A DNA stretch of 64,000 nt, taken from NCBI GenBank assembly GCA_965153355.1, contig OZ231126.1, positions 14,818,001 through 14,882,000 of the forward strand, written 5' to 3'. Position 1 is the stretch's first letter; each line of letters begins with the position of its first letter. Positions 27,099 through 47,720 of this stretch are shown here, one piece after another. The notes beneath the pieces are model-generated. The model ran no database searches. It was not told where the DNA came from and saw only the letters and a list, made by a program, of their open reading frames with translations. The DNA is from Flaccisagitta enflata (Eukaryota). A program made the position numbers and the translations under genes.

Positions 27099-28220
27099 CT
27101 AAACCAACAACTTGGCTCTTTGCGCTGGATCCTTTGGATTCAAGGCCTTCAACTCGCTTGAGTCACCCTTGAACCGGGAGCCGATGCTCTCTGATGAGAC
27201 AATCTTGTCTTTTCCATCATAAAGGAATAAGCTTTGATCCTTGATTGTGTCTCTGACAAATTTTTCCACTTGCTGAAATTTGTCACTTGAGCAGAAGGAG
27301 CTTTCCAAGGTGTCATCAACTGTTGTTATTTGGACCTTGATCTCCCATTCTTCAAAGTGGAATAAATGGGTGACTCTTGTGTCCAGGCTGAGGTTTGTGA
27401 TGTGTGTGGGTTCTGTCAAATGAATCTCATCTGCTAAACATGCTCCCTCTACCCCTTCGTAGAATATCTTGCCTTGGAAATTCTTGTCAAGTTGGAAGAC
27501 TTCAACCACCTTCAACCTGAGAAATTCTAACTGGTTAGAATCCTTCAAATTCTTCTTTTTCATCTCTGCCAGGTCAAGATAGAAAACCGTCTCATATCTG
27601 GTGCCATTAAGCAAGATGACGGTGACTCGCATCAAAGGCAGAGAGGGTTTCAACGACTTATCTGCATTGTACATTTTGGTTTCAGTCTCATTGAACGCTT
27701 CGGCAAAAAGACGCAAATAGGTTTTTTCAGAATGTAACAGGTCAACTTTTGCTGCAAAGCAATGCATGATCAGAGGATCAAACACAGCTCGCAGTTTCGA
27801 CCAAAATTTGTCATCCAGAACCAGGCCGGTTTCATGTGCGACAAGATTCCGCGTCACTCTCACCATCGCGGTGACGCTGCAGGAACCACTGGAACATTCT
27901 TGGTTGTATTCTGGATACTTGTCCATGACGGCCTTCAGCGGGACAGTCCACTCTCCTTTAGTAACTAAAGCGCTGTTTCTTTCCAAGAGAAGAAAACTTT
28001 TAATGTATTCTTCAGAGGACAAATAGCATTTGCACTTGCAGTCTTTTTTGGAGCCTTTGCACTTGCAGGTGTCATTGTGGGGACACTGACTAATATCATC
28101 GAAATGTTGCCTCACTGGACGCACAAAATTGGAGAACTTGTCTCGATTATTCTGACAGAAAGCTGGCAAAAATTTCAAGGTTTTGTCAAAACTCTCTCTT
28201 TCAACAGGATGTGTGGCCAT
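27099..28220 (-). CDS. KEN (IRE1/RNase L-type) ribonuclease-domain protein with Cys-rich insert and probable C-terminal ubiquitin-like domains; possibly the terminal exon of the ROCO gene
   Basis: 373-aa non-repetitive ORF. HP..SFDKTLKF, LERNSALVTKGEWTVPL, Y..SVTAMVRVTRNLVAH and DDKFWSKLRAVFDPLIMHCF are collinear with human IRE1 HPFFWSLEKQLQF, LERGGRAVVKMDW..TVPL, Y..SVRDLLRAMRNKKHH and [20 protein letters not shown] (from memory). Splice acceptor ttttcag at 28242-28248. Confidence 0.75.
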   Translation of the reverse strand: MATHPVERESFDKTLKFLPAFCQNNRDKFSNFVRPVRQHFDDISQCPHNDTCKCKGSKKDCKCKCYLSSEEYIKSFLLLERNSALVTKGEWTVPLKAVMDKYPEYNQECSSGSCSVTAMVRVTRNLVAHETGLVLDDKFWSKLRAVFDPLIMHCFAAKVDLLHSEKTYLRLFAEAFNETETKMYNADKSLKPSLPLMRVTVILLNGTRYETVFYLDLAEMKKKNLKDSNQLEFLRLKVVEVFQLDKNFQGKIFYEGVEGACLADEIHLTEPTHITNLSLDTRVTHLFHFEEWEIKVQITTVDDTLESSFCSSDKFQQVEKFVRDTIKDQSLFLYDGKDKIVSSESIGSRFKGDSSELKALNPKDPAQRAKLLV

Positions 28221-28331
28221 GACAGACTACGTTGATTCAGCCTGAAAAAAATTCAAATGCTGTCATGTATCAGACGCTCCATCGATTAGACTTGGCAAAC
28301 TGAATTGAAAATTCAAATCTTGCAGTCTCAC

Positions 28332-28360
28332 CATGACGGAACCCATAGGCGCCGTGAAAC
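28332..28360 (-). CDS. Candidate 29-nt microexon upstream of the KEN exon
   Basis: On the minus strand: catag|GTTTCACGGCGCCTATGGGTTCCGTCATG|gtgaga, then a 90-nt intron to the acceptor at 28242; coding status unproven. Confidence 0.4.
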
Positions 28361-28389
28361 CTATGTTTGAGCTCAAGATAAGAAAGGGA

Positions 28390-29520
28390 CTGGGATTAGG
28401 TTATTGAGGCTAGGATTAAATATGTAAGGCAGGGATCAGGTTGCTACCAGGATATGGTCTCTGAGGCTAGGATTAGGTCGCTTAGGCCGGGATTAGGTCA
28501 GTGAGGCTGGGATAAGGTCAGTGAGGTCAAGATAAGATCACTCGCTGAAGGCAGGATTAGGTTGTTCAGACTGGCATTAAGTTGCTGAGATTTGGATTAG
28601 GTTTCCGAGGCTGGCATTAGGTTACTGAGATTGTGATTAGATTGCTAAAACTGAAATTAGGTCCCAAAGGCTAGTATTAGGTCGCTAAGGCCACTATTAA
28701 GTTGCTGAGGCTATAAGGTCGCTAAGGCCATCATTAGTTTGCTGATGCTGGTATTAGGTCGTTGATATTGGTGTTATATTGCTGAGGCCAGGATATGGTC
28801 GCTTAGGCCAGTATTAGGTCGCTGAGGCCATCATTAGAGTGCATAGGCTTAGATTAAGTCGCTGAGGCCCCAATTAGACTGCTGAGGCCCAGATTAGGTT
28901 AGTGAGGCCCAGATTAAGTTGGTAAGTCCCAGATTAGGTGCTGAGGCTGGGATTAGGTGGCTGTGGCTTTCATGAGGCTGCTGTCGTGGGCATATTGTCA
29001 CTGACGCCGGCAGGATATAGCTGGAATGAGTTTTCTTAGGCCAGCATGAGGCCATTGAGGCCAAAAATAGCACATTGAGGCCAGGATTTTGTTGCTTATG
29101 CTGGGATTAGGTCCTTGAAGCCAGGATGAAGTGACTAGAGGCTAGGATGAGATTGCTTAGGCTAGGATTAGGTTGTTGAGGCGAGAATGTTACTGAGACT
29201 GAGACATGGTTTAGGTAAGTAAGGCCAGGATTAGATGCTGGCATTAAGTTGCTGAAATTGGGATAAAGTTGCTGAGGCTGAGATCAGGTTGCAGAGGCTG
29301 GTATTGGGTTACCGAGTTGATTGCAAGATTAAGTTGTTGAGGCTAATAAGGTCACTGAGGCTGACATTAGGTCATTGAGGCTGGGATAAGATTGCTGGGG
29401 CCTTGATTGGCTTGCTGAAGCCCGAATAAAGTTGCTGTGGCCAGGATCAGGTTGCTGGGGCTGGCGTTAAGTCGCTGAGGCCAGGATGCAGACACTGAGG
29501 TCAGGATTAGGTTGATGAGG
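28390..29520. repeat. Degenerate ~20-bp minisatellite (GGATTAGGTCGCTGAGGCTG-like)
   Basis: About 50 diverged tandem units; resembles the family B internal repeats. Confidence 0.8.
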
Positions 29521-29538
29521 CTTTAAAAAGGTCCCTGA

Positions 29539-30156
29539 CACTGCTTTCTGACAGAAGATTTGTGACAAGAATGATATCACTCCGGGTTTTTCTGCATTTT
29601 TGTGTAGGTCATAGGCATACAAATCAAGAACTGTCCAGTGGAAAATCATCCCTAGAGCGCATTTTGAAAAAAAGTCAAAAATTAATGATTTTTAGCTTCA
29701 ATATAGATGAATAACTTTGCAGGTTGGTCTGACTAATTTTTTGACAGCATATTGTCAATCCTGATCTAATTCCCTTTCATTTGATAGGTCGCACTATATG
29801 GTTTTAAAAAGAAATAACATTTTCTTTTTTTTTGCCACCGTTACAAAAATTGCAACGGTGGCCTTAAATATGAAAATTTGATTTTTTATCAAAATTATAT
29901 AGTGCGACCTATCAAATGAAAGGGAATTTTATCAGGATTAACAATATGCTATTAAAAAAAGTGTCAAACCAAACTGAAAATTTTTTTGTAAAAAATGAAG
30001 CTAAAAATCATAAATTTTTGATTTTTTTCAAAATGCGCTCTAGGGATGATTTTCCACTTAATGGTTCTTGATTTGTAAGCCTATGACCTACACAAAAATA
30101 AAGAAAAACCCGGAGTGATATCATTCTTGTCACAAATCTTCTGTCAGAAAGCAGTG
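29539..30156. mobile_element. Near-palindromic foldback MITE (~620 bp)
   Basis: CACTGCTTTCTGACAGAAGATTTGTGACAAGAATGATATCACTCCGGGTTTTTC is exactly inverted at the right end; the arms pair toward a centre CCACCGTT..AACGGTGG. Confidence 0.85.
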
Positions 30157-30234
30157 CTGAAGCCACCCTTCTATCCATGTTCCATTTCAGCTTCTCAATC
30201 ATTTCAGTCATAGAATTATAATGTAGGTTTCTTT

Positions 30235-31175
30235 TGAGCAGCGGCCCCAGAGGGGCCGATGACCTCTGATTCTACACAGGACAAATTTATCCAGTTTCCT
30301 TCCGTCCGTCTGTCTGTTCATCCCCCCCAGAAGCCTCAAAACAGGTCTCTCAGACCACAAATGAAGCTCTTTCAGACCCCAAATTAGACCTCTCAGGCAT
30401 TTTAGACCCTAAATCAGGCCACTCAGACCCAAAACTAGACCTCTCAGACCCCAAACAAGACTTCTCAGACCCCGAATCAGGTCACTCAGACCCCAAATCA
30501 GGCCACTCAGACCACAGATCAGGCCACTCAGACCACAGATCAGGCCACTCAAATCCCAAATCGGGCCACTCAGACCCAAAATTAAGCCTCTCAAACCCCA
30601 AATCAGGCCTTCAGACTCCAAATTAGACCTCACAGACGCAAATTAGACCTCTCAGACCCCAAATCAGGCCTTTCAGACCCATATTCAAGCCTTCCAGACC
30701 CCAAATCACACCTCTCAGACCAGCTTCTCAAATCCCACATTTGTCCATTACCCCCAGGCCCAATTCACTCCTCTCTGGCCTCAAATGAGGCATCCAAGAC
30801 CTCAAATAAGGCATCGCAGACCTCAAATCAGGCCCCTTGGCACCAAAATCAAGTCCTCTGGGGCCGCTGCCCCTCTCATCTCATTCCCCAAATTAGGCCT
30901 TTCAGACCCATATTCAAGCCTTCCAGACCCCAAATCACACCTCTCAAACCAGCTTCTCAAATCCCACATTTGTCCATTACCTCCAGGCCCAATTCACTCC
31001 TCTCTGGCCTCAAATGAGGCATCCAAGACCTCAAATAAGGCATCGCAGACCTCAAATCAGGTCCCTTGGCACCAAAATCAAGTCCTCTGGGGCCGCTGCC
31101 CCTCTCATCTCATTCCCACATACACAAACTTAGGGGCATCGGGTTCCGCTGACCATGAAACGCTTTTGCGACTTG
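30235..31175 (-). mobile_element. HINE-like family B element with 21-bp repeats and an internal ~229-bp tandem duplication
   Basis: GCAGCGGCCCCAGAGGGGCCGATGACC terminus, (CAGACCCCAAATCAGGCCACT)n, block 30661-30889 repeated from 30890. Confidence 0.6.
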
Positions 31176-31199
31176 TGATTATGGGGGTAAGCATAATAA

Positions 31200-31772
31200 G
31201 AATAGTCGCAAAAGCGTTAGATGGTCAGCGGTACCCGTTGCCCCTATGTGAGTGTATGTGGGTGTGAGGTGGTTAGTGGGGCAGCGGCCCCGAAGGGGCC
31301 GATGACCTATGCTGATTTTATTTGAGCCTCAAGGCTGGTATTTGAGCCTGGAGGCTTGGATTTGAGCCTGGAGGCAGGGATTTGAGCCTGGAGGCAGGGA
31401 TTTGAGCCTGGAGGCAGGGATTTGAGCTTCATGGCTGGGGTTTGAGCTTCAATGCTGGGATTTAAGCCTCGAGGCTGGGATTTGAGCCTCGAGGCTAGGA
31501 TTTGAGCCTCAAGTGTGGGATTTGGGCCAGAAAGCTGGGGTTTGAGCCTTGAAGCTGGGGTTGGGGCCTTAAGGTTGGAATTTGGGTCTCAATGCTGAAA
31601 TTTGGGCCTCTAGGCCAGAATTTGGGTTAAAGGGCTGGGATATGGCCTTGAGGTGGGATTTGGGTCCCAAGGCCGGGGGGGGGGGACGTAGAAGGAGGAG
31701 AAGAAGGTGAAGGAGAAATTTCCCCTGTGTGAAAGCATAGGTCATCGGCCCCTTCGGGGCCGCTGCCCAAAA
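31200..31772 (+). mobile_element. HINE-like family B element with perfect 35-bp subterminal/terminal inverted repeat
   Basis: GGGCAGCGGCCCCGAAGGGGCCGATGACCTATGCT at 31279-31313 is exactly inverted at 31734-31768; internal (GGATTTGAGCCTGGAGGCAG)n. Confidence 0.7.
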
Positions 31773-32018
31773 GGAATGAAGTATGAAATATGTAGTATTT
31801 TCTTTAAGAATTAAGAATACTGCTGGTTTAGCCATGGCTAGGGAGCATATTCATGTATGACTGCCAAAGAAGCAAAATCCTTACAGAACATACTATTGAT
31901 TTTGAGCAATATCCTCTGTTTGAAATATTCACATTTTAGCAAAAAGAAAAAAAAAAATAGAGATGTGCTTCTATGGCAGCTGCCCTTAATGGAGAATGAA
32001 ACATCCTTCTTTGTTTTT

Positions 32019-32198
32019 AGTCGCATGCATGCAACTCTACAACCCGCTTTGTCCGTCCGTTGGTTGGTCACACTTTACTTTTTTTTATGATTTTATTTCT
32101 TTGACCTTTCGGCTCCTGTCCAAATGGTCTGGTGACCTGAAATATGGCCCGTGCCCACCCGCACGCGACTTCAGTAGCCTCGTATCCGGCCTTGTTTT
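32019..32198 (+). mobile_element. Short HINE-like element (family A)
   Basis: 5' AGTCGCATGCATGCAACT, GTCC microsatellite, 3' GCACGCGACT..GTATCCGGCCTTGTTTT. Confidence 0.55.
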
Positions 32199-32452
32199 AT
32201 TCACTTGAACAGCTCTAGTTTTTTCCCCATTATGTTTGCCCTCATCATCACACGTCTAAACGTATCTCCCACAATCTCCAATGATCTGGTTAACAAAACA
32301 GAGATACAGAATCTAATTGGAGAAAAATTTTTTTGAAAAAGGTAAAAAATGGTTTCCTTCATTTTTTGCATGCTCTGCGCCTAAGGGTTTAGGATTCTCA
32401 CTGCAATGAGATTTGAACTTTTAAATCAATTCGCGGAGATCTATAAAATGAG

Positions 32453-34752
32453 CTATTGATCATGGTGGTAAGATAAAAGCAACATATTCTGACTCAACGT
32501 AATGACAGACAAGATGACGCTTGTTTCAAAATAATCCGCACGTGCCCCTCCAAGGGTTTCTTGATCAATCAATAGTGGAGAAATGCAGCGACTCTCTTTT
32601 GGGTGAAACACGTTCATGATTTTGATCGCCAAATTACTCGGGAAGCAGTACTTTGGATCGCAATTCAATCTCTTCAACCTTTTCCTCTTGCTTCTGGTGT
32701 CATCCTCTAGTGAGTCACCATGAATGGTGGGTTGTGGGTCGTAGTCTCCATGCTCACAATCTGGGTCAAATGAAGGACAAACGAGCTGACAATCCTCATC
32801 TTCCAGGTCAACATTTGAAGTAACCTCATTCAAGATGATCCATGCCAATTCAGGCAAGATTTTGGCATCTGCGAGTGTGACCATGAGATTCAACAGATTA
32901 TCATCTGGGGATTGAGGTTTGTAAACAGCAACTTCAAAGTGACCCACCTTTGCCAGAATGGCATCTTCTCTTGTTCGCAGAATCAGCTTTCCATCCATAA
33001 TTGAAGCCAGCCTTTGCATGACCGATGTTGCTACAGCGAAATTCTTACTCATTGTTCTCTTGCATATCTTTGTCTCTGAGGTAAAGCATACAGTAAGCTC
33101 AAAAAAGGATTTCAACCCCAGGGTGGTTTTGATAAAGGTCTCTACATCCTTATCATCTGCAGTCTTAAAGATCAGATGTGGAATGAAGTACATTTTCATT
33201 CCAAGTACATTCTCATTCATAGGAACGATGATGTTCAAATGAGAGAGAATGAAAAGGAGAGATTCCATTAACAACTCCGACTCAACATTGGATGAACTGA
33301 AATCAAGATCATCAAATCCAATGCTCAAACCTTCGGCACTTCCTTTCAACTCTCTGTGAAGATGTACAAACATTCCTTTGATCAAAGGCAAAGGCAGTTG
33401 GCCATCTTCGTACGCTTGGATAAGCGTATCTTTATCACTGGGTTTCAGCTGGTGAAACTCTGCAAAATTCCCAAGCAGCAATTGCATGGCATGGTAGAAA
33501 AGACTCTTCATAACAACAGCCAACTTTTCAATTCTATGAAAAATGACAGTGCTACCATCGTGCCATATTACGCTCCCTCTTACGCTGAGAGCTTTCAGCA
33601 TCTCAATGACGTCGTAGTCATTTAGTGATGGGGCAAAGGCGCGTAGGTCATCAACTTTGACATATGGTTTATCTTGGTTCTGATTCAAGAGCCAGTCAGT
33701 GGCTTCTTTCCAACTCTCTTGAAGCATGACTGTTGGCAAGTTGGAAATAGCCCTTCCTAAATTGGACTCAAATGTATCAAAACCCTTTAGGTCGTGAGAA
33801 CTGACAAAAGATATAGAGTCAGTGTTAAATACCGGAGGATTTTCCACTTTGCCGACTTGTTTACTCAGCTTTCTTTCTAAACCCTGTTTTTGATCTTCTA
33901 ATTTGGCCAATTCATCAGGATTGTCCGTTGAAGCTTCGATGTCCTTTTCAACCTCTGCCAGTTTTTGCTGCAGCTGTTTTTTTCTATCCTCACGGATTTT
34001 CAGGGGTTTCCCAATTCTCGAATCTAAGAAAGCCAGCAGTTGAGCTTTCATCTCCTTAATTCGTGACGGCCTCTCCTTCTCGTCGATCAAGTCAATCTTA
34101 GACACAACAAACAAGAAATTTGGACTACTGGCTCCATCGAGGATCTTTTCAACCCAGATCCAAGCACTTTCATAGAGTGAATCATCGTCTATAAAATCAT
34201 CTGGGTTCAGGAGGCATATATAGAGGCCATGATGTCGGCACAAGACAGCAAGTGCTGACTCGTACTCTTTGTGACCTCCCAAGTCAATGATTTTCAATAT
34301 CAAATCTTTGAGGTATGCTGGATAAACATCAAAGACCTGTGTCCGATCTTCCAATTTGATTTCTTTTGCCGAGACAATCTTGCCTGCCAGACACTGCCCA
34401 AAGGATGTCTTACCTGCTTCTTGTCTGCCAATGAGCATGACAGTCACATCTTTTGCATCAATCATGGAGTTGGGGTAATTGGTCAAATATTTGATGACGG
34501 CGCATTTTCCCTCATCGAAAACATGCTTGGGAGGGTAAATCAATGGGTTATTGTTCAGTATGGACAGTCTGCCACTCTCATCCAGAAATTTCAACATCTC
34601 CTTTTGGGGCAACTCTGTGATTTTGTTGTTTTGTAAATCGGGGTAAAACCAAGGTCGCAGAATTGAAGGATGTATTGTTTTGATGGAGCAATCAAATGCC
34701 CGCAATGTTGAAAGCCGCGATGAAGGTGGAATGGCAGGCAAAAACTTCAACT
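32453..34752 (-). CDS. ROCO protein, large LRR-ROC(GTPase)-COR exon
   Basis: Acceptor ttttcag at 34753. LRR end and NNPLIYPP..EG..AV..YL cap; P-loop GRQEAGKTS, switch I RTQVFDV, DLGGHKEY, SKID, FVSS; COR-like WKEATDWL..LKALSVRGSVIW..IFH. The 3' end may splice out near 32494 or 32542 instead of stopping at 32453. Confidence 0.9.
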
Positions 34753-35152: not shown

Positions 35153-35287
35153 CTTTGTTGCCGTCAAGATGTACGTATTTCAATGGACCATGAAACAGAT
35201 TTGTTGGAAGTGATTCCAAGGAACAGTTTCTTGCACTCAATGCTTTTAGAGACGAGGTGGAGTTAATTGATGGAATGGTCTTTAATC
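35153..35287 (-). CDS. ROCO LRR cassette exon G (135 nt, phase 1-1)
   Basis: GLKTIPSINSTSSLKALSARNCSLESLPTNLFHGPLKYVHLDGNK; cag/gtaag boundaries. Confidence 0.9.
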
Positions 35288-35331
35288 CTGTAAATAAGAG
35301 GACAAAATGATCATCATCATCATCATCGTCG

Positions 35332-35394
<63 letters not shown>

Positions 35395-35678
35395 CCATCA
35401 TTCATCATCAATACATCATCATCGTGGCAACTATGTAAGGAGGGGGGTGTCTGAAAGTGATTGCTAAAAATAAAGGTCTATAACACATTGTTTCGAGTAA
35501 CATGAAATCAAATGCAGGTGGGCAGGGGCAGTGATGTAAAATCACTCTCAAACGACAAAAATACTGAGCATCATTGCCCGTGCCCTCCTGCAATGGACCA
35601 CTAATCAATCGTGCATCCAGCCTTGTCGATATCTTCTTTCATCAATACCAGTTTTGTGGTAAAGCCATCATTTCACAC

Positions 35679-35813
35679 CTTTGTTTTCATCAAGATTAAC
35701 ATTTTCCAATTTGAAATGAAATAGATTTGTTGGAAGAGATTCAAGAGAGCATTTTTTTGCTGTCAGATTCTTGAGTTTAGATGTCGAGGTAAGAGGCGGA
35801 AGAGACCGTAATC
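35679..35813 (-). CDS. ROCO LRR cassette exon F (135 nt, phase 1-1)
   Basis: GLRSLPPLTSTSKLKNLTAKKCSLESLPTNLFHFKLENVNLDENK; cag/gtgtga boundaries. Confidence 0.9.
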
Positions 35814-35902
35814 CTGTAAAGGATGAAAAAAAAATGAGATAAATTGTTTTACTCAAGATTGCTGAGAAAATTGGCTGCACAGTCACATCCTTCAAGTTTT
35901 AC

Positions 35903-36037
35903 CTTCATTTTCATCAAGACGAACATCCTCCAACTGAAGATGGAACAAATTTGTTGGAAGTGACTCAAGAGAGCATTTCTCAGCCATAAGTTTCTTGAGT
36001 TGCGACGATGAAGAAAGATATGGTAGAGACTGTAATC
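35903..36037 (-). CDS. ROCO LRR cassette exon E (135 nt, phase 1-1)
   Basis: GLQSLPYLSSSSQLKKLMAEKCSLESLPTNLFHLQLEDVRLDENE; cag/gtaaaa boundaries. Confidence 0.9.
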
Positions 36038-36125
36038 CTGCAATCGACAACATTAAACGACAAGATTATCATAACTGCAACTACTAATGTCATATTGCCA
36101 TGAATAGTGTAAACAGCTACCTCAC

Positions 36126-36260
36126 CTTCATTTTCATTAAGACAAATTTCCTCCAACTGAAAGTGGAATAAATTTGTTGGAAGTGATTCCAGAGAACATT
36201 TTTCTGCCATCAGTTTTTTGAGTTGTGATGATGAAGAAAGATGTGGAAGAGACTTTAATT
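36126..36260 (-). CDS. ROCO LRR cassette exon D (135 nt, phase 1-1)
   Basis: ELKSLPHLSSSSQLKKLMAEKCSLESLPTNLFHFQLEEICLNENE; cag/gtgagg boundaries. Confidence 0.9.
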
Positions 36261-36315
36261 CTGGAAAAAGAAGGAAGTAAAGGAGATTATCATCAAATTA
36301 TGTCAAATTGCCAAG

Positions 36316-38045
36316 AGCTCACAGCCGCCCAGAGCGTGAAGCTTGTTGACCTAAAACAATTGGCACCAACTTGGATGGTTTCAGAACCCTGATGGTGCAT
36401 ATAACACATATCTAAGAAAAATGAAATCTGTTTTAGGTAGGGGTGAGTCGAGCAATTAATTGCTCGACGATTAATCGAGGAAAGATTTTGCATTGCTTGC
36501 TCGAGGAAAGCAAAAATCCTAGGGGGGAAAAATTTTGTTCTAACAAACCAACCAAAGGATGGACAGACATGACCTATCATAGATTTGCAGGAACGCACAT
36601 AAAAATACAATAGGACAAAAAATATTTTTGACAGACTGATGGATTGACGGAGCTCATAGATGGACTGATAAACCCAAAAAATACTGTTGATTAATCAAAC
36701 AAGCCCAAACTAGCAACGATGCGTCCAGACTGTGTCTCTGCGTATATTGATCATGTGACACATATGGATTGACAGATGGACAAACAGACAGATGGAACAA
36801 CAAGATTAGTATTGGAGGCTCTCAAATCATGTTGTTCTCGCAGTAGATTCAGTGTAGGATCTCGTCGTGGCCGAAAACGGTCAAAAACCGCGGTTTTTGC
36901 ACAGGCGTAACGGACCGACGGACGGACCGACGGACGGACCGACGGACGGACGGACGGATGGACGGACTGACCAACGGACGGACGGACGGACAAACCCTCT
37001 TATAGAGATGCGAGGACGCATCTAAAAATGGTAAATCATAAAGATACTTCAGGGACTCAGTTTTAGAACTTAGTTACAAATATCATCTGATATCAAGCGT
37101 CATCTGACAAATAAAACCTTTTCGCCTTAATCCGTAGTGGCTTTTTTTGGGATGTCGGATTTAGCAAGTAAGCAAGTAAGCTGCCTAGGATCATTTTACG
37201 CGTGACTGCTTACTATCCTCAGGAAAAACTTTAAAAAAAAATGCTTCGTAACTTGTGATCATCTGAGACAAATAATGTTACTTTATTTTGTTCATAAAAC
37301 TGAAAAAAAAAAATAGTATTAATTTGTTCGTGGCCTACTTTGAAATATGTTTTTCTATAAAGTCTAAAAGAAAAACAAGTTCCATTGCGTTACCATTTTT
37401 TTCTTTTTAGAACTATTAGGTGAAAAAGTTATTTAAAATCACTTATCGAACGCTGGAAAAAAATCCTTGTAAATGCTTGAGGATTCCTCGAGGAATTAGG
37501 ATTTTGGGCGATTTATCATCGAGGAAAAATATCAAATCCTCGACTCAGCCCTAGTTTTAGGGCTCTTTTTAAAATATTTGAAAAAAAAAAAATTTTTATC
37601 ATAACTTTGTGATTGAGTTTTTCATTGATTTTTAGTGAAGTTCTGATCTGAAATAGTGGCTTCCGGTTTGTCATGCTATACACTTTTGCAAAAGAGATAA
37701 AAAGTTAATCTTTCCAATTAAATATTGTTTTGTATAGTATTATGACCAAAAAATAACTTTTTATTTCTTTTGCAATAGTATATAGTGCGACGTATCAAAC
37801 TAACCGGAAACTATTATTTGAGATCAAATCCGCACTTAAATTCATTGAAAAAACAAATCACAAAGAGTTATGGTAAAAAATGCAGTAAAAAAGTGCTATT
37901 TTTTTTAATATCTTAAAAAGCGCCTTTAAAAAGATTTCATTTCTCTCAGATATGTGTTCTATGCACCATTAGGGTCATGAAACCACTTGAATTGGCGCCA
38001 ACCATTTCAGGTCAACTAGTGTCACGCTCTGAGGGGCTGTGAGCT
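36316..38045. mobile_element. Long-TIR MITE in LRR intron C-D, host of nested insertions
   Basis: AGCTCACAGCC..GAGCGTGA..GGTGCAT..AACACATATCT at left is inverted at 37923-38045. Confidence 0.7.
36438..37553. mobile_element. hAT-type non-autonomous element with 8-bp TSD
   Basis: TIRs TAGGGGTGAGTCGAG / CTCGACTCAGCCCTA (1 mismatch), flanked by GTTTTAGG at 36430-36437 and 37554-37561; contains a (GGAC)n HINE-like insert at ~36695-37027. Confidence 0.8.
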
Positions 38046-38071
38046 ATACAGTACCATCCATCAAACCTCAC

Positions 38072-38206
38072 CTCTATTACTATCAAGACAAACATCCTCC
38101 AACCGAAAGTGGAACAAATTTGTTGGAAGTGACTGTAGAGAGCAATCTTTAGCACTCAGATGTTTGAGTAGTGATGATGAGGAAAGAGGTGGCAGAGACT
38201 TCAATT
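38072..38206 (-). CDS. ROCO LRR cassette exon C (135 nt, phase 1-1)
   Basis: ELKSLPPLSSSSLLKHLSAKDCSLQSLPTNLFHFRLEDVCLDSNR; cag/gtgagg boundaries. Confidence 0.9.
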
Positions 38207-38446
38207 CTGGAATTGAAGGAGGTAAATAGGATTATCTTTGTCATCACTACTAGAGATGCCCAAGCGGTTGATATTCTTGTTGCTTCCAACGCTTCCTCTT
38301 CTGCCTCTATCTTGCAGTTCAAATACTAGTAGTAGTACCTATCCCACCCGCCGAATTGGAAACGGTCAATTGTTTCCAGATCCCTAACTTACTAACAATG
38401 TAAAGTGGCCAAAAGTAGCCGCATAGTCACACCCTTCAATCTTCAC

Positions 38447-38581
38447 CTTTGTTTTTATCAAGACAAGCATTTTCCAACCGAAAGTGGAACAAATTTGTTG
38501 GAAGTGACTCAAGAGAGCATTCTTTAGCACTCAGATGCTTGAGTTGTGATGATGATGAAAGAGGCGGTAGGGACTTTAAGC
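38447..38581 (-). CDS. ROCO LRR cassette exon B (135 nt, phase 1-1)
   Basis: GLKSLPPLSSSSQLKHLSAKECSLESLPTNLFHFRLENACLDKNK; cag/gtgaag boundaries. Confidence 0.9.
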
Positions 38582-38893
38582 CTGAAAATGATGATCGTCA
38601 ATGATATTGTTGTTACTTTTATATGAATCAATGTCAAGATTAGCGTACCAACAATTTACACAAAATCATAGAAAAGTTCTCTATCAAAGGGATCTAGCTC
38701 TAAATCATGTATAAAGAAAACATATAACCATAGGACCCCTGTAAACTATGGCCGTCACCCCCTCATATCCCATAGAAAGTGTATCAGCAGGGTTCAACCA
38801 AGTGCCCAAGCAGGCAAGCATTGCTTGTAGGCAGCTAGCTTATTCCACAACGACCTCTTTAATATACAAAAAATTTTTTTTGCCAAATCTGAC

Positions 38894-39028
38894 CTTCATT
38901 TCCGTTCAAGTTAATTTCCTCCAGTTTGCTGTTAAACAAATTTGCAGGAAGTGAATCCAATGAGCAGTTTTCTAGCTTCAATATCTTCAGCGAGCATGAA
39001 GACGGCAAAGGCGGAAGTTCCTTCAATC
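38894..39028 (-). CDS. ROCO LRR cassette exon A (135 nt, phase 1-1), the most 5' exon found
   Basis: LKELPPLPSSCSLKILKLENCSLDSLPANLFNSKLEEINLNGNE; tag/gtcaga boundaries; the start exon is not visible. Confidence 0.9.
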
Positions 39029-39200: not shown

Positions 39201-39989
39201 TGACATTCTTCACATTCCCCACCATATCCAGGTCAAGAAGCGCTCAATCGGATGCATTCGACTCCGCGGATCCCGAAGAGGAGGAGAGGCTCTCTCGCCG
39301 TCGAAGATTCCAAGATGGCGTCTGCTCGACTGCAGAGTGGAGGAAACTTAGGAAAAGGAGAGAGATCTTCGATCGACGGAGGAAGTGGAGGAACGCGCGC
39401 GCGCGCCGAAAGCGCTGACTTCCGGTTGAGGATTGATGGACTGTATCTCCTCAACCGCTTAGAGGAGAATAGACTTCGACCCCTCTAACGAATTCCCATG
39501 ACGCGACGATTCCATTGATCATTGTTCCATTGCTGCCAAATAATTTCAAATCTCGTGATGCTTTGATTAAATTTGTTATTTATTTCTAGGTTAAGTAAAA
39601 GTAGCTTCCCTGACTCTCTTACTGACATTCGACTTCACAATCTCAGTTAAAGACTCGATTTTGATGCTTTTTCCCCGACTTCCCTGCCCTGCGCCTAGAT
39701 TGGAAACCGTTCGACAACATCCGTGTAAGTCCTTGACCTTTTACCTTTTTGGCGCTTTTACAGAAGTATCCTTCATTGATGTACAGAGTTTGTCCTAACC
39801 TTTTTCTTTTTTCTCTATCCATCAGGATTCCACAAATAGACTGATTTTGCGGACAACTTGACCGCTCATCTCAACAATTCGTTCTAAGCGGGTGTACGTT
39901 CCAAATCATTAGCGCAGCTACGCAGTGGAGTCAGTTCTCGCGATTACGCATCAGGAGCTTGATAAGAAATCAGACGTAAAACGCTCTCA
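39199..39989 (+). repeat. 5' LTR
   Basis: TG..GACATTCTTCACATTCCCC ... GACGTAAAACGCTCTCA, a direct repeat of 50902-51693. Confidence 0.9.
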
Positions 39990-40033
39990 ATTCGTGGAAT
40001 CAAAAACCATCAACGATCCACGCAACGTCAACG

Positions 40034-43000
40034 ATGTCGACCGCCAACAACAACGCCAACACCGACGCGACGTCAATGCCGCCACCTTCGCTGCCCAATC
40101 AACGCAGGAAGGCCTTTCGACCAACCGACTGCGTGTCCATCGTTTCCGACTCGTCCGTCTATGCGGGCGCAATGGACCCCGTAGCCACGACGCTTCGCGG
40201 ATTACGAAAGTCTCTACGCAACACGCGCAACGCCTACATGTCGGCGTTGAAAACCGCCGATACCCTTAACGATGACGATATTTTGGACTTTTACCAAGAT
40301 ATGGACTGCCTTCGAAAGGAAGTGTGGTTAGCGGCGTGGCGATTGGTCAATACGACAAAGACTTACGCACAAGCAGAATCGACGAACAACCCCGACAAAG
40401 CGGCGTCATTGTTGTCGACAGCCGAAAGCTCATTGACGGAGGTACGGAAACTGTGGGACGCATAATGCTTCCACGACAAAAATACTTTTGCGTCGCATCT
40501 GTTCCTGCCAACCTACCACGACATCCACGATGAGTCACCAGAGACTGGAGCAAAACGCGCTCTCGAGATGACGATGGGGTCGTCGACGCATTTCGTCCAA
40601 TCCCTTTCACGACGACGTAAATCAACGCCGAACGTGACCGGCGACGATGAAGACGCGGGAGAGGACGACTTGCCCGTCGGCACGGAAGCAGCGAATCTCA
40701 ATGCAGCGGAGCAACGACACAACGCGCCGCCCCACACGCCAGGCGCGTTAGAAGACGCCGAAGAGATACGCATAAACTTTGAACCTCCAACACCGGTGAC
40801 GCCGGCGAAATCACGTTTTTTGTCGGCCAGAGACGATGAAGACGACGACGCCAGCGACGCAATGGAAACGTCATGGCCGAACGCTGACGCCAACCTCCCT
40901 CCAGGCGCCGTCGGCGGCGCCCCTCCCACGCAAGACCTTCTCAACATGTTACAGCAGTCGATTGCCGACGGCGACAGAGTCGCTCAAGGTGACGCGATGG
41001 TGCAAGTCGTCGGACGTCTCGTCGACGACGTTAACCAAGTTCGACGCTCGATGGCGAGAGAAGCACGCGCAAACACGAGATTCCGTCTCAGCTCGCGCTC
41101 TGTATCTCAACAACGGGAAGAGAACGCCCGGCAGATGACGGCAAACATCGCATTAAACGCAGCCGTTAATGCCCGGACAGACGCGGTCACGGCCGGAATC
41201 GACGAGAGGAAAAGAAGGGAGGAGGAGGAGAGGAGGAAGAAGGAGAAAGAGGAGGAGGAGGAAAGACAACGCATCCACGCTGAAGAAGTGAGAAGGAGGG
41301 CAGAGGAGACAAGAAAGGGGCAGGAGGAGAAAAGGAGGACAAACTTGAAGAACAAGATGGCACAGGAGAAAAGAGAGAAAGAGGAGAAAGAAGAAAAGAA
41401 AAGAAAAGAAGCGGAAAGGAAAGCAGAGGAGGAGAGAAGGAAGGCGGTGGCTAAGAGAGACGCGGAAGAAAGGAAGAAAATGGAGGAGAAGAAAAGACGC
41501 GAAGAAAAGAAAAAGGAGGAAGAGAAGAAAAGGAAAGAAGAGGAGGAGAGGAAGAAGAGAGAAGCGCAAAAGAAAAGTCAGCAAAGACAACTGCCATCCA
41601 AGACGCCGCCCCCAACCGCACGTGAACACCCTCTCCACGAGCAATTGCGCACGAGACAAGATGCAGCGGAGCAAGAAAAGAATGCGATGGATCACGCGGA
41701 CGCAATGGCAAGAGTCCAACAACTGATCAGCGATCTCAACCTGGAAGACAGCGTTGTTTTGCAGACACGTGTCCAGCTGCGCAAATCGACGCCGCCATCA
41801 CCAAGCTCACCCGTCATCGTCCACCAAATCGCGAGTGGTCCTCCAGCTCCGCAAGCATCCCGCAACACACGCGGAAGTCAACGCCCTCTGGTCGACGACG
41901 TCTTCGACGGCGAAGGGTTTGAGCGCGTCGACAGACGGAAGTCGAGAAAGACGCCGCCCCCAACGCCGTCGCCTCCTAGATATCAAAGATGTCAAACCGG
42001 AAGTGACTCCGCGCGAAACGGCCTCGCGCATTCGCAATCCTTCGCCGAGAGGATGAACGCGGTTTCCTTCATCGACAACCCGATTGCCTACAACGCCCGC
42101 GTCAGAGCAAAGGACGTGGGATTGAGGGAGATGCGCGCAGCACGCCCAAGAGAAGCGTATGGATACCTCGAGCCAATCGACTATATCATCGCCAAATCCA
42201 AATTTGAAAATGCCGCCTCTAACATTGAGCTAGACGAAATTGACAAAGTGACTGAATTGGCCAACGTCTTCGCGAATCCAGTGAAGGAAATTATCGACGG
42301 TCAACAACTCATCATCAAGGCGCACAATATGCGCCGCGTCTACAGCACCTTGTGGAAACGCCTGGACGAGATGTTCAACACGAGCGTCAATCCGTTCCAA
42401 TCGGCCGTCGACAGCATCTGCAGGAAAGGAAAGGTTCCAGAAAACGACATGAAAGCCCATCAAGCGTTGATTGGCACGTTGTACAAACTGGAAAGCGTCG
42501 CAGAACTGCTGAATGCAACGGGGGAGTGTGATCGTGACGTCCACATCCGCCGCATCATCAACGCGAGGGTGCCACATATCTCGACGGACTATTGGAAAGC
42601 AAGCGCTCGTGAACAAGCTCGCCACGGCACGGCTTACGGCTTCCAAGAACTCATCGGGGAGGTGAAGCATTGGGTGTCGTACAACAACCTCAAGGAACCG
42701 ACACGCATGGCGCCGAAACCGACGAAGGTTGCAGCGACGGCAGTCGGTCCGGCGACCTTCAAGGAACAGCTCGTCAACTCACCGCCGAAGCAACAACCCA
42801 ACGACATCTGCAATATTTGTGGAGGTCGCCACAACTCCCATTTGTGTCATGTTTTGGAAGCCATCCCATCAGCAGAGGATCGTGTGAAGAAGTTGGCTGA
42901 GAAACGTCTATGCTTTCATTGTTTCTGCCCAAACCATTCAGCGCGGGACTGCAAAGACAAGCCGACGTGCTCATCCTGCAATAAGAGACACGCAACCCTG

Positions 43001-43156
43001 CTGCACGATCGCCAATTCAAGACGAGAGGAAATGGAGAAGGAATCACGTTTAAGACGCCAAATCCTGCCGCATTAGCTGCAGCCGCCGCCGCTCCAAAAC
43101 CGTTCCTCCAGCGCCCCCAAGCAGCTCGTCGACGGACGATCTGTGCATCTGGATGA
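40034..43156 (+). CDS. gag: BEL/Pao Gag (one in-frame TAA at 40463-40465)
   Basis: ORFs 40034-40465 and 40568-43156 share a frame; KE-rich coiled coil; CNICGGRHNSHLC, CFHCFCPNHSARDC and CSSCNKRHATLLH knuckles typical of BEL Gag. Confidence 0.85.
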
Positions 43157-43194
43157 AGGAAGAGTGATGGAGGTGACTCGCTGCCACCTCCGCG

Positions 43195-46100
43195 ATGAGG
43201 ACGGTAGTTGCGGAGGATGATGTCACGCGACCGATTGTCCCTGTAAAGATCACCAACGTCGGACGGCCGTTCCACCGCAGTGTTGGGATGATTGACAGCA
43301 GAGCGGATCGTGACGTTTTATCGCTTCAAATCGTTAAAAAATTAGACTTTACCAACCGAAAAGATGCTGATGCGCGTGCATACGGTCAATTGTGGTGGTG
43401 GAGGAGAAAGTCTTAGCGCCTCTTATCCTTTCATCGATTGACGAGGAATACAATGTCCACATCAGTAACGCATTAACGGGAGAATTGTTGACGGGTGAAG
43501 CGGATATTGCTCCATGCCAACGCGACTTCACCAACCAGTCTCATCTTCGCAACATTCCATTTCCAAAAGCAAATGGTCCTGTCCACTTGATCATCGGCGC
43601 CGCCCATTACGATGCGACGATGCCTGTGGAGGCAAGAAGAGAGGTCCATCGGGATCTTTGACAGCCTTCAGATGTGTTTTTGGATGGACTGTAGCAGGAA
43701 AGAGTGGACGAAGATCTGATGATACCGCTGTCATTAACGCAATCCATGTGGATAACGCGCATTGAGCAAATCTCTCGACCGCATGTTCTACCATGACTTC
43801 GCCATTGTATCGGAGGAAGAAATGGGCCAGTCTGAAGAGAATCGTCGCGCTGTAAAAATGGGTGATGAGATTATATACTTTCACGAGAATTTCCAGAAAT
43901 ATGTCAGCCGCATGTAAGACAGAGAGAAAATCGTCAATTATCAAGTCTGTAAAATGCACGCAATGTATGACGACAAAGGACAAAAAGCTCTCCGATATAA
44001 AACTCTCAACGACCATGACTCAAGGAATGTTGTCTTCAAAGAAATGGACAAATCGTGGACACGGTGTGGCGATAGAGATTGATCCGAAGAACGACGATGC
44101 AGGCATCTCATCGCCACGCTGGTATTTACCCATCCATGTGGTGGAGGAAAGGAAACAAAACGTTGATTTGTCACGATGGACTGCTGAGCATCATGGTATT
44201 TGCCTCAATGAGCTACTGACGGGAGGCCCTATTATCATGAACGTGCTGACTGGAAGTTCTTATGAAATTGGCCATAAAATCGTGTCTTAAGGATGACCTG
44301 ATATTGCTGCGTTATAATGTCCGCGCCCATCCTGGTGACGTGCGATGATTGAGACATATATGTGGCTCTCACTGACAAAGCATGAGAGAAGGTGGTCGTG
44401 ATGCCTTTCTTGGCGCACATTTTTGAATGGTCTCATCAAGTCTCGTCACCAGCTATGTTTTACGCCATCACGCAGAAAAGATCAAACCAGACTTCCCGAA
44501 AATGTCTAATAAATGTTGAGACACATGCCTCTTCTACGCTGATGACGGTTTGTGGTGCGGATTCGAAGCTGGATGAGTGCACTGGTAGTTGAAGCGAAGA
44601 TCTCATCGCTTACGAAGAGCGGCGATTCACCTTAACGGCGGAAGTCGAACGCCGTGGAAGTGATGGACAGGATCTCAATGTCGCGGTCGACTTGAACCCA
44701 ACCGAGGAGCCAAATAAAGGTCTGGGGTCCAGTCGAAGGCTGCCGACGGACTGTTTCTGTATCTTCAGATGCGATCCAGAAGCGTGCAAGAGGGTAGCAA
44801 CAACTCCTCGCGAGTTGGTCTCCATGCAAGCCGACAACTATGATCCACTTGGATTCACAGCGCCTCGCGCCCTTGAAGGGAGAAGGTGTCTTCAGTTGAC
44901 GAGAGCTTCCGAGAAAGGATGGGATTCGACGATGGAGGAGGCGTTGATCAAACGCTTCACCAAATGGTACTCTGCGACTCCATTGCTGATCCAAATTGAA
45001 ATTCCGCGCCATATTGAGTGGGGCATTGTGAAGGCCGGTCGACGAGAAGTTCACACCTTCTGTGACGCCGCCATCCCTGGATTTGGAGTAGTGGGCTATT
45101 GGTTGGTGGAAGATGAGGATGGAACAATCCGCGTTACCATCTTGTGCGCAAATGCCCACGTCGTCCCTCTTGATGCGTCAAAAGCGTCGCACCACAATTC
45201 GGTGCCGAGGTTAGAAATGACAGCGGCAGAGAAAGCGGTGAAACTCAAACTTTTCATCAAGAGAACCATTCCAAAGGTGACCGAGGATATGGTGACGCTC
45301 TGGTCAGATTCAGAGGCTGTGCTGAAGATGATTTTCGACCATAAGTCTAAACGCCCTAGCTTCTTTGCAAACCGACTTTCAAAAATCCATAGCGGCTCAA
45401 GTGATTCTCAATGGAGATGGGTTAATACGGACAACAACCCGCGGACTATTGTCGCGGGGTATTGACGCCGGCGACAAGGACAAATGGGACATTTTCCATT
45501 TCGGTCCAAAGTTTCTCTACCTCCCCAAATCTGAGTGGCCGACAATGAATATTGCGACGGCGCCGGAGGCATCAATCAACGCCGTCGCGACAGGAGCGGT
45601 GGAAGAAGAGGAGGGGGAAAAGGAAAAGGAAATGTTTGCCTATGTAGTGGCTGCCCGTCGCCAGGAGTGGGTGGCGAAATTGCGTTTGATCGCCGTGATT
45701 GTGAAGTGTGCGCAGCGATGGAGACAGAAGGTGAAGGCAAAGACTAGAGCAGCGGCGACGACGCTGCAAAATCCCTACTCTGTATCTATGGCTGAATTGT
45801 ACGACGCTCAACGCCGCTTGATCAACGCAATCCAGTTCAAACATTTCCACTGAGAGATAAATTGGAAGTTGAAGGCAGAGGAAAACGGGCTGCTGATCAA
45901 CGACGTCATGCCAAAGTTATTCGCAAGACCACGCCATCACAATCCGGTTGTCGCATTTATAGCGGGACGACGTAGGAAGCAGACTTGTGAACGCGGACAT
46001 TGGCCATGACGAGAAATACCCGATGATTCTCCCTTCGAAGGATCCGAACGTCGCTTCTCTGATTCGCCACGTCCACTATCAGGATCTCCACGCGGGCCCA

Positions 46101-47164
46101 AAACACGTCTTATGCCAACTGCGACGCTTCGTGTGGATTCTTCGAGGTCTCCAAGCGGTGAAGACAGTTATCCACCATTGCGTCACGTGCCAAAGGAACT
46201 TCAAAGATCCTATGAAGCAACAAATGGCGCCTCTTCCTCAACGACGGCTCATTCCAACAGCGCCCTTCGAGGAGGTGGGACTTGACTGTATGGGTCACTT
46301 CCTGGTGAAACTGAACGGCAGGGCGGATCATAAAGTCTGGGCAGTGGTATTTACCTGCATGGTTTCGAGGGTGGTGCATGTGGAGGTGTTGTTTAAAATG
46401 GACACAGAGGCAATGATCAACGCCATCATTCGATTCGCGGCGAGACGACAAACGGTGCGTCGGTTCATCTCTGACTGTGGCACTAACCTGGTTGGTGCAA
46501 ATCGCTGCCATGAGGAGATGCAGTCGTGAACGTTGCTGCCGACGGTGGCTCCTGCAGCAGCATGGACCCAATGACTTGCCCCTGGGACTCCCATTACGTA
46601 TGCGTATGGAAAGTGGTCGTATCTCCTTTTCAAAAACATTTGGCATCCATTACTTCCGGTCACGTGCTCCATTACGACGTCTTCCAAACGGCAGTGATCG
46701 AGGTGGAAGGAATTCTCAACCGCCGACCTCTCACGCCTTTGAGCGACGACCCTAGCGATACATCGGCGCTGAGGCCGGTGAATATCTTGCATCCGTCTAC
46801 GTTCTCACACTCGTCGGCAGCGATTCTCCCTCCAGAGACCGGAAACGACGCCGTGGGAACGAGATGCCGATGGAGAAACGCACAGGCCCGTGTCGACGCC
46901 TTCTGGAAGGTATGGCGCGCCGAATACCTTCAGTTGCTGCACGCAAGGAGCAAATGGACAAACTCGGAAGTTAACATCAAAAAAGATGCATTGGTCATCA
47001 TCGTTGACGAGACGCTTCATCGGCATCAGTGGTCTTTGGGACGCATCGTCGAAGTGGAAGGATCTGGTGATCATGTCCGGAAGGCACAGATCCTAGGCCC
47101 CGACGGCAAGATCGTCCTCAAGGATCGGTCGAAGATCGTCCGATTGGAGCTGGATTCAGATTAA
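43195..47164 (+). pseudogene. pol: BEL/Pao pol, frameshifted (protease, RT, RNase H, integrase)
   Basis: MIDSRADR protease-like motif; YLPIHVV, CLNELL.GGP and FYADD (44532-44546) of RT; HTFCDA, PRLEM, WSDS, FFANR, WRWV..NP of RNase H; H..HAG..CVTC, GLDCMG, SDCGTN, EGILNRRPL, FWKVWRAEYL of integrase; multiple frameshifts and stops. Confidence 0.9.
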
Positions 47165-47720
47165 AAACGGATAAGTGTGAAGAGAGAGAGAGAAAGTAGA
47201 CCAGAGAGAAGCATAAGTGTTTCTATTTGTAAAGACTATACATGGAAATGAGGGTTTCTTTCTCTCATGAATTTTTTGGTCTTGTTTACTTTTTCTCAGT
47301 CGGTCTGTCTGATATGTCTTTGTGTGTGATTACGGGAGAGAGAGAGGTACATGGTGCCCCCAGTCAGTTGAGAATGTCCGCATGATTGACTGACAATCTA
47401 AATTTTGCCATGCCATTTTAATCTTGTATTGACCATATAGAGGCATTCGTTCGTGCATTTTCCTTTCTGTTTTATCCATATCGTTGACTGTTGAGTGTGG
47501 AGGTCATTTGAGGCAGCCAGATCGAAGAGTCTTTATTTCTTTATCTATGCATACTCATTTAACCTTTCCGTCATGGTCTTTCACGAATATGTCTTCCTGT
47601 TCAGCTGGATTACAATTTCCAGAAATCTGAATTCTTCCAAAACAGGCAAGCTACACTTATCTTACGCTAAAAGCTCTCTGTCGTTATCAGTCGACAACTG
47701 TTGCAGTAAAAAGATCCATC

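Follow-up and report, generated by a model that had tools for sequence, protein, structure and literature searches.

The window analysed here, 64,000 nucleotides of a Flaccisagitta enflata contig, holds a recently disabled copy of a large sensor-switch-effector family. Members of this family run from an LRR array through a Roc GTPase, COR and two kinase-derived helices to KEN and two ubiquitin-like (Ubl) domains, an architecture that we did not find described in the literature searched. The 373-aa open reading frame (ORF) at 27099–28220 (−), which carries RNLVAH at aa 124–129, had been taken in an initial annotation for a stand-alone KEN-Ubl gene. That annotation was largely right about the domains and wrong about their independence: the ORF continues a 765-aa Roc-COR ORF across a transposon, the paralogues are contiguous over the same region, and the ORF looks stand-alone because of the recent transposon insertion. 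We read the family, with a probability of about 0.65, as an enlarged set of invertebrate LRR sensors that activate a KEN RNase by dimerisation, for which we infer an immune role, activity and expression. The ORF itself is an insertion fragment, and the intact paralogues, such as L021, are the objects worth study.

Table 1. Features of the split LRR-Roc-COR-KEN-Ubl-Ubl gene in the window
Feature	Position	Strand	Remark
ORF	27099..28220	−	3′-terminal third of the large exon in an LRR-Roc-COR-KEN-Ubl-Ubl gene; starts at an internal Met
Ubiquitin-like domain 2	27123..27347	−	No C-terminal Gly-Gly
Ubiquitin-like domain 1	27348..27638	−	
KEN (HEPN-type) RNase domain, aa 22–165	27726..28157	−	
RNLVAH active-site motif (R124, N125, H129)	27834..27851	−	
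Cys/His-rich insert between the first two KEN helices	28017..28091	−	Lowest-confidence part of the model
Last kinase-derived helix and LPxF turn (= IRE1 kinase-ending HPxFW), aa 1–21	28158..28220	−	
9-bp target-site duplication, ORF-side copy	28219..28227	.	Holds the A and T of the ORF's ATG
DNA transposon, non-autonomous, 4,274 bp	28228..32501	.	13-bp TIRs (12/13 match)
9-bp target-site duplication, second copy	32502..32510	.	
Large exon, 5′ two thirds: final LRRs, Roc GTPase, COR, first kinase-derived helix	32502..34752	−	
135-nt two-LRR cassette exon	35153..35287	−	
135-nt two-LRR cassette exon	35679..35813	−	
135-nt two-LRR cassette exon	35903..36037	−	
135-nt two-LRR cassette exon	36126..36260	−	
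135-nt two-LRR cassette exon	38072..38206	−	
135-nt two-LRR cassette exon	38447..38581	−	Found by sequence and tblastn; missed by the exon pattern
135-nt two-LRR cassette exon	38894..39028	−	Most 5′ exon found

An AlphaFold model of the ORF, built from 74 family ORFs (mean pLDDT 91), superposes over aa 18–172 on yeast Ire1 977–1115 (Z 9.5, rmsd 4.1, 126 aligned), in agreement with the KEN domain that had been proposed. The features quoted in that proposal, an R-N-x3-H motif, a Cys-rich segment and two β-strand motifs, are all present in the ORF. The R-N-x3-H motif, here RNLVAH, ends helix 116–128 of the model and can be aligned with its counterpart in the IRE1 exon of the same genome (E 0.0014). 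The HP at aa 4–5, which had been identified as the motif that ends the kinase, lies outside the conserved columns, and paralogues differ at that position. The counterpart of the kinase-ending HPxFW is KFLPAF (aa 16–21), with P19 in 89 of 90 paralogue ORFs; its alignment to the IRE1 exon of the same genome is weak (E 0.045). The Cys-rich insert within KEN is also confirmed; it varies in length, is absent from some paralogues and is a possible Zn site.

A second model, of residues 563–967 of the intact L021 frame (pLDDT 92), places this domain in its full setting. Residues 1–186 of the model match COR-B of LRRK2 (Z 9.2, rmsd 3.5, 145 aligned), LRRK1 and bacterial Roco, the COR-B matches spanning Z 8.3–9.4, and residues 191–382 match human IRE1alpha 794–963 (Z 12.0, rmsd 3.9, 154 aligned) and RNase L 555–714 (Z 8.4). 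The predicted structure of L021 thus has the last two kinase helices and KEN directly after COR, where we take the helices to be those of the kinase and the IRE1 domain boundary to lie near 832. Kinase exons between COR and KEN are ruled out by the structure, in which COR-B extends to ~186 and the IRE1 match begins at ~191, together with the contiguous paralogues. The description of the ORF as kinase-less therefore holds for the kinase lobes, which are gone, and fails for the last two kinase helices, which remain, with a Roco GTPase in the kinase's place. Nor is this a nuclease freed from control, as had been suggested, for intact paralogues carry KEN directly after LRR-Roc-COR and the P-loop is intact in 76 of 76 ORFs of at least 1,050 aa. 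A homodimer prediction for a COR-B–KEN fragment, run without an alignment, gave a score of 0.00 and an uncertain fold, and weighs neither for nor against a dimer.

By sequence, the ORF alone has no match in Pfam or PDB. Pfam Ribonuc_2-5A matches 39 of the 74 members at E ≤ 0.1 (best 4.6e-5), the ORF of the window not being among them; most members score below the Pfam cut-off for KEN, and Pfam ubiquitin matches two of the 74. A profile of the KEN region run against PDB returned neither IRE1 nor RNase L, and one chance match. A search of the ESM Atlas with the KEN part gave HEPN_DZIP3/DUF4559-type clusters at 0.88–0.92, which we treat as a lead to the HEPN superfamily only.

The active site of yeast Ire1 consists of H1061, N1057, R1056 and Y1043, and H1061 is worth at least 7.6 kcal/mol according to the available part of the mutational study, which also describes RNA docked by two RNase subunits and a Y1043F mutant whose rate falls only about tenfold, a tenth of the activity being kept (PMC3149027). 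The catalytic-type residues claimed for the ORF are present in part. The R-N-x3-H triad is conserved, with R124 in 88, N125 in 88 and H129 in 86 of 90 paralogue ORFs, while the IRE1-type Tyr is missing: at the position of the general base (yeast Y1043), 13 residues before the Arg, Gly occurs in 84 and Ser in 3 of the 87 ORFs with the motif, the three ORFs that lack the motif being left out of this count. A Tyr or His anywhere at −16 to −10 is found in only 6 of the 87. A kinase-bearing KEN set from the same genome has Tyr in 17 and His in 4 of 21 modules at this position, so the active site of the Roco-KEN family is altered. RNase activity is nevertheless plausible, since R, N and H are kept.

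Downstream of KEN, the predicted structure contains the two β-grasp domains that had been suggested by eye, at aa ~195–291 and ~292–366. Residues 292–363 superpose on SUMO1 (Z 11.4, rmsd 1.3, 72 aligned) and residues 192–364 on the di-Ubl of chicken OASL (Z 10.4, rmsd 6.6, 150 aligned), and the Foldseek list for the tail is dominated by di-ubiquitin and ISG15. GG occurs within the last 12 residues of only three of 90 ORFs, and without a Gly-Gly end the tail would not be conjugated. The OASL tail docks RIG-I. The family shares with OASL and ISG15 a tandem of β-grasp domains, with ISG15, linear di-ubiquitin and the chicken OASL di-Ubl as top fold matches, and differs from them in sequence (9–13% identity) and in lacking the Gly-Gly end; the common fold proves neither ancestry nor function.

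Upstream of the transposon, the 765-aa ORF at 32453–34750 carries a Roc domain (Pfam) with a P-loop, GRQEAGKT, at 34429 and DLGG at 34285; it runs into the transposon and stops at 32453. Seven LRR cassette exons at 35153–39028 precede it, each symmetric, in phase 1 and coding for two LRRs. Searches for the start codon and 5′ exons of the gene covered the remainder of the window, a further 20 kb outside it and the flanks of paralogues, and found only repeats. Among 36 cassette exons found by pattern, the concave-face LRR positions have the highest entropy, and their pN/pS is 0.47–0.66, compared with 0.16–0.27 elsewhere, the pairs behind these ratios not being independent. At the level of sequence, the ratio on the concave face is raised yet below 1, and so does not indicate formal positive selection.

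The element that separates the two halves is a non-autonomous DNA transposon whose largest ORF has at most 206 codons and whose interior holds nested palindromic and tandem repeats. Its terminal word occurs 162 times in the genome, compared with 62 for a control, and copies often form inward-facing pairs a few kb apart, genome-wide, the paired copies being mostly 2.4–5 kb long. Three other TIR pairs were checked, of which two have 8-bp duplications and one has none. The ORF-side end has at least 40 other copies at 90–99% identity (40 of 162 candidates scored; 41 matches including itself), and with ends up to 99% identical to other copies the element is young. Joined across it, the gene halves have a length of 3,369 bases that divides into whole codons, and are in frame with no other lesion; the intact frame of the ORF is explained by the youth of the insertion. 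The insertion point lies inside a conserved helix that packs on KEN in the model. Removal of the element as a perfect intron is ruled out by its ends, which are not GT-AG. No intact allele of the interrupted locus is present among database proteins, where the best identity is 76–77%. A BEL/Pao-type LTR retrotransposon at 39202–51696 (Peptidase_A17 and DUF5641 matches), with LTRs at 39202–39992 and 50908–51696 that are 92.6% identical, lies 5′ of the first LRR exon found, at a distance of 175 bp, and is a second insertion in or beside the split gene. Together with the introns and the LRR exons, this element marks the DNA as eukaryotic, and we read it as that of an invertebrate animal.

Four marine metatranscriptome assemblies, at a share of 0.06–0.07, and one raw-read run matched the window. 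No depth was found over the ORF in three assemblies and one raw run, 94% of the raw-run reads that aligned running on into sequence unlike the stretch, so that the run may come from another organism. One run has a 171-base contig on the 5′ exon, and the remaining alignments are to repeats; these data bear neither on expression nor on polymorphism of the insertion.

To place the locus among its relatives, the genome (794 Mb, 9 contigs) was searched with the ORF, which gave at least 120 matches at 110 places (147 candidates, 110 scored) and hence at least 110 relatives. Open frames of at least 1,000 codons surround 95 of the 110 places, two of these having a stop inside the match, and the remaining 15, the window locus included, lie in shorter frames. 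Within the long frames the ORF-like part is contiguous with sequence resembling the 765-aa Roc-COR ORF. From 88 loci fetched, we kept 90 ORFs similar to that of the window, many of them only ~30% identical to it. Roc was detected by Pfam in nine of ten paralogues scanned, mostly under the cut-off, and the number of LRR cassette exons varies between copies. Neither the large exon of the ten paralogues scanned nor the LRR exons showed a luminal sensor, TM or ankyrin repeats, the outermost 5′ end of the gene not being found. Two further paralogues, L111 and L112, have short frames across the ORF region (322 and 363 codons), which suggests frequent gene death in the family.

Beyond this genome, the family profile found 52 proteins among 1.84 billion representatives, and the ten examined come from ENA or JGI assemblies and are unnamed or hypothetical. 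Some of these database relatives are 95–98% identical to genes of this genome and others 26–41% identical to the nearest of the 90 ORFs, a mixture suggesting that related species carry the family. A scan of metagenome contigs yielded no confirmed relative among 153 pattern matches.

The genome also holds another set of KEN genes. A search with the PF06479 model gave at least 149 matches, all above the cut-off (150 of 172 candidates scored), at places that differ, by a comparison made by eye, from those of the ORF family; IRE1 itself is among them (L113/L123), a separate IRE1 being kept at G000:C6:6.30 Mb. All 17 long ORFs of this set that were scanned combine LRRs with KEN, ten have a weak kinase match and one (L135) has Roc; a hydrophobic segment lies between the LRRs and the kinase-like part in 14 of 17 non-Roco ORFs. 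Judged by eye, these genes have Toll-type ectodomains capped by Cys-rich segments, and their kinase motifs look degenerate. The TIR domain had no match in 20 proteins of the set that were scanned.

A profile of 21 C-terminal modules from this set matches the ORF family (97.8%, E 1e-12, 266 columns) from KEN through the second Ubl, and also matches yeast Ire1 (E 4.6e-6), human IRE1 (2e-4), RNase L (0.23) and Ubl domains (0.03–0.45). The open frame ends before the second Ubl in about half of the 21 modules. A search of the ESM Atlas with the Toll-type module returned nothing. In a tree of 51 KEN rows, the Roco-KEN rows and five metagenome proteins lie on one side of a well-supported branch and the kinase-bearing rows on another. 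Having no root and a distant outgroup, the tree gives no order of events; the Roco-KEN family is not nested inside the kinase-bearing set, so that descent by kinase loss has no support from it.

Several genes of this set have architectures of their own. L125–L142 (for example G000:C6:4523000-4531000 and C9:21652500-21660500) are long single-frame genes that we read as a signal peptide, a Toll-type LRR ectodomain, TM, a degenerate kinase, KEN and one or more Ubls. L135:1555-6354 and L119 are LRR-Roc-COR-kinase-like-KEN-Ubl-Ubl genes and possibly a second Roco-KEN fusion; L135 has, by eye, two hydrophobic segments around a Thr-rich stretch in COR and a possible N-terminal Ubl. In L122:1480-3390, KEN is followed by SH2 domains, and L115 (G000:C4:63771193-63771330) is a second IRE1-like KEN exon, apart from IRE1. 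The kinase-like match of L132 and L133 lies 400–700 residues ahead of KEN, a spacing that suggests duplicated receptor segments.

In the Roco-KEN genes, a Roco GTPase has most likely taken over the control of KEN from a kinase. We propose that the variable LRR array would bind a ligand derived from an invader or from damage, and that binding would shift the nucleotide state of Roc and hence the monomer-dimer balance of Roc-COR. A Roc-COR dimer would then pair two KEN domains, the job of the kinase or pseudokinase in IRE1 and RNase L, and the paired domains could cut viral or cellular RNA and shut the cell down. For the di-Ubl tail, the probable role is to dock a partner, much as the tail of OASL docks RIG-I, or else to set turnover. 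We borrow the putative monomer-dimer behaviour from bacterial Roco, which is described in the text available to us as a dimer without nucleotide or with GDP and a monomer with GTP (PMC5714945).

A KEN that is a weak or dead RNA-binding RNase, with output through the di-Ubl tail or the GTPase, would account for the loss of the general-base Tyr in 87 of 87 ORFs and for a divergence that takes KEN below the Pfam cut-off, and non-catalytic RNA-binding HEPN domains exist, as stated in the part of a survey at hand (PMC3710099). We regard this as unlikely, given that R, N and H are kept in 86–88 of 90 ORFs, many only ~30% identical to that of the window, and that Y1043F retains a tenth of Ire1 activity in the portion of the work consulted (PMC3149027). 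It is also possible to picture an active, Roco-controlled RNase outside immunity, in stress RNA decay, development or transposon control. A family of at least 110 diverged copies that differ in how many LRR cassette exons they have, alongside a parallel Toll-type receptor set with the same effector, fits receptor diversification instead, and a separate IRE1 is retained in the genome. The origin of KEN in the IRE1 stress pathway, an LRR-face pN/pS below 1 and the varied roles of vertebrate and Dictyostelium Roco proteins, as outlined in the accessible text of a review (PMC6337361), speak for such a role, which we hold to be quite unlikely.

Expression of the 373-aa ORF alone, as an unregulated KEN-Ubl-Ubl nuclease with the transposon end acting as promoter or splice acceptor, appears very improbable. 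The transposon interrupts a conserved helix that is packed against KEN in the model, an in-frame TAG stands three codons ahead of the ATG, and a splice joining a phase-1 LRR exon to the ORF would lead to a stop or the wrong frame. An intact ORF with an ATG and an acceptor-like tract in the transposon end just upstream might seem to allow it, as might the kinase-free KEN expansions that the available text reports in Oikopleura and monocots (PMC3710099); the youth of the element already accounts for the intact frame, and an always-on RNase would presumably be costly. We retain as the likeliest the reading of LRR sensors that activate KEN by Roc-COR dimerisation, in which the 373-aa ORF itself is most likely not made as a protein. 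The KEN-Ubl-Ubl cassette common to the Roco-type and Toll-type genes seems to mark the inside and outside arms of one RNase-based defence. More tentatively, at somewhat less than even odds, innate immunity may have been rebuilt here on an IRE1-derived RNase. In more than 250 genes a KEN-di-Ubl effector would be joined directly to variable LRR sensors, the Toll-type ones at the cell surface and the Roco-type ones in the cytoplasm, and recognition of a pattern would lead straight to the destruction of RNA, with neither TIR adaptors nor 2-5A in between. In the Roco arm the GTPase dimer cycle would replace the kinase as the switch, and the whole would be an invertebrate counterpart of bacterial sensor-NTPase-HEPN suicide systems.

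If true, an independent and massively expanded set of invertebrate LRR sensors with a KEN RNase wired to them would be an invention separate from RNase L-type defence, RNase L being placed near the base of jawed vertebrates in the text available (PMC10400998). A Roco protein with an RNase output would let the Roc-COR dimer cycle, a matter of continuing debate for LRRK2, be read out directly, and would show KEN switching without a kinase should the mechanism hold; receptors that join a Toll-type ectodomain to an RNase where TIR would otherwise stand would form a class of their own, not known before. No Roco-KEN or Toll-KEN protein was found in the literature searched, most subscription papers lying outside it. 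The KEN partners reported in the available part of Anantharaman et al. 2013 are kinase, ankyrin, CCCH, UBI and BRCT, and that text contains neither 'ROCO' nor an LRR-GTPase or Toll-type fusion for KEN (PMC3710099). The same text describes the kinase-free expansions in Oikopleura dioica and monocots, proposed to be antiviral RNases; like the present family they are lineage-specific, kinase-free KEN sets, with one KEN-UBI fusion reported, and unlike it they are described as solo KEN (PMC3710099).

With IRE1 and RNase L (PF06479) the Roco-KEN family shares the KEN fold with the last kinase helices, the R-N-x3-H triad and, as we suppose, sensor-driven activation. It differs in lacking kinase lobes and in having Roc-COR and LRRs, with no luminal or ankyrin sensor seen in genes whose 5′ end was not found, and further in the Cys-rich insert, the Gly in place of the general-base Tyr, the di-Ubl tail and the more than 100 copies. 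Among Roco proteins, three groups are named in the accessible text of a review, none with an RNase (PMC6337361). Bacterial LRR-AP-GTPase-COR proteins carry at least 24 effector domains, and those named in the available text (GT4, TIR, DRHyd, caspase, trypsin, FGS and EADs) do not include KEN (PMC8195603). The brown algal ROCO genes, candidate immune receptors with shuffled LRR exons, have no ribonuclease described in the part of that study available, and resemble the present family in their cassette LRR exons, which here have their most variable positions on the concave face (PMC11378527). The family thus has the LRR-Roc-COR core, intact P-loop and COR-B fold of Roco proteins such as LRRK1/2, MFHAS1 and their bacterial and brown algal relatives, and differs from them in what follows COR, namely a KEN RNase and two Ubls.
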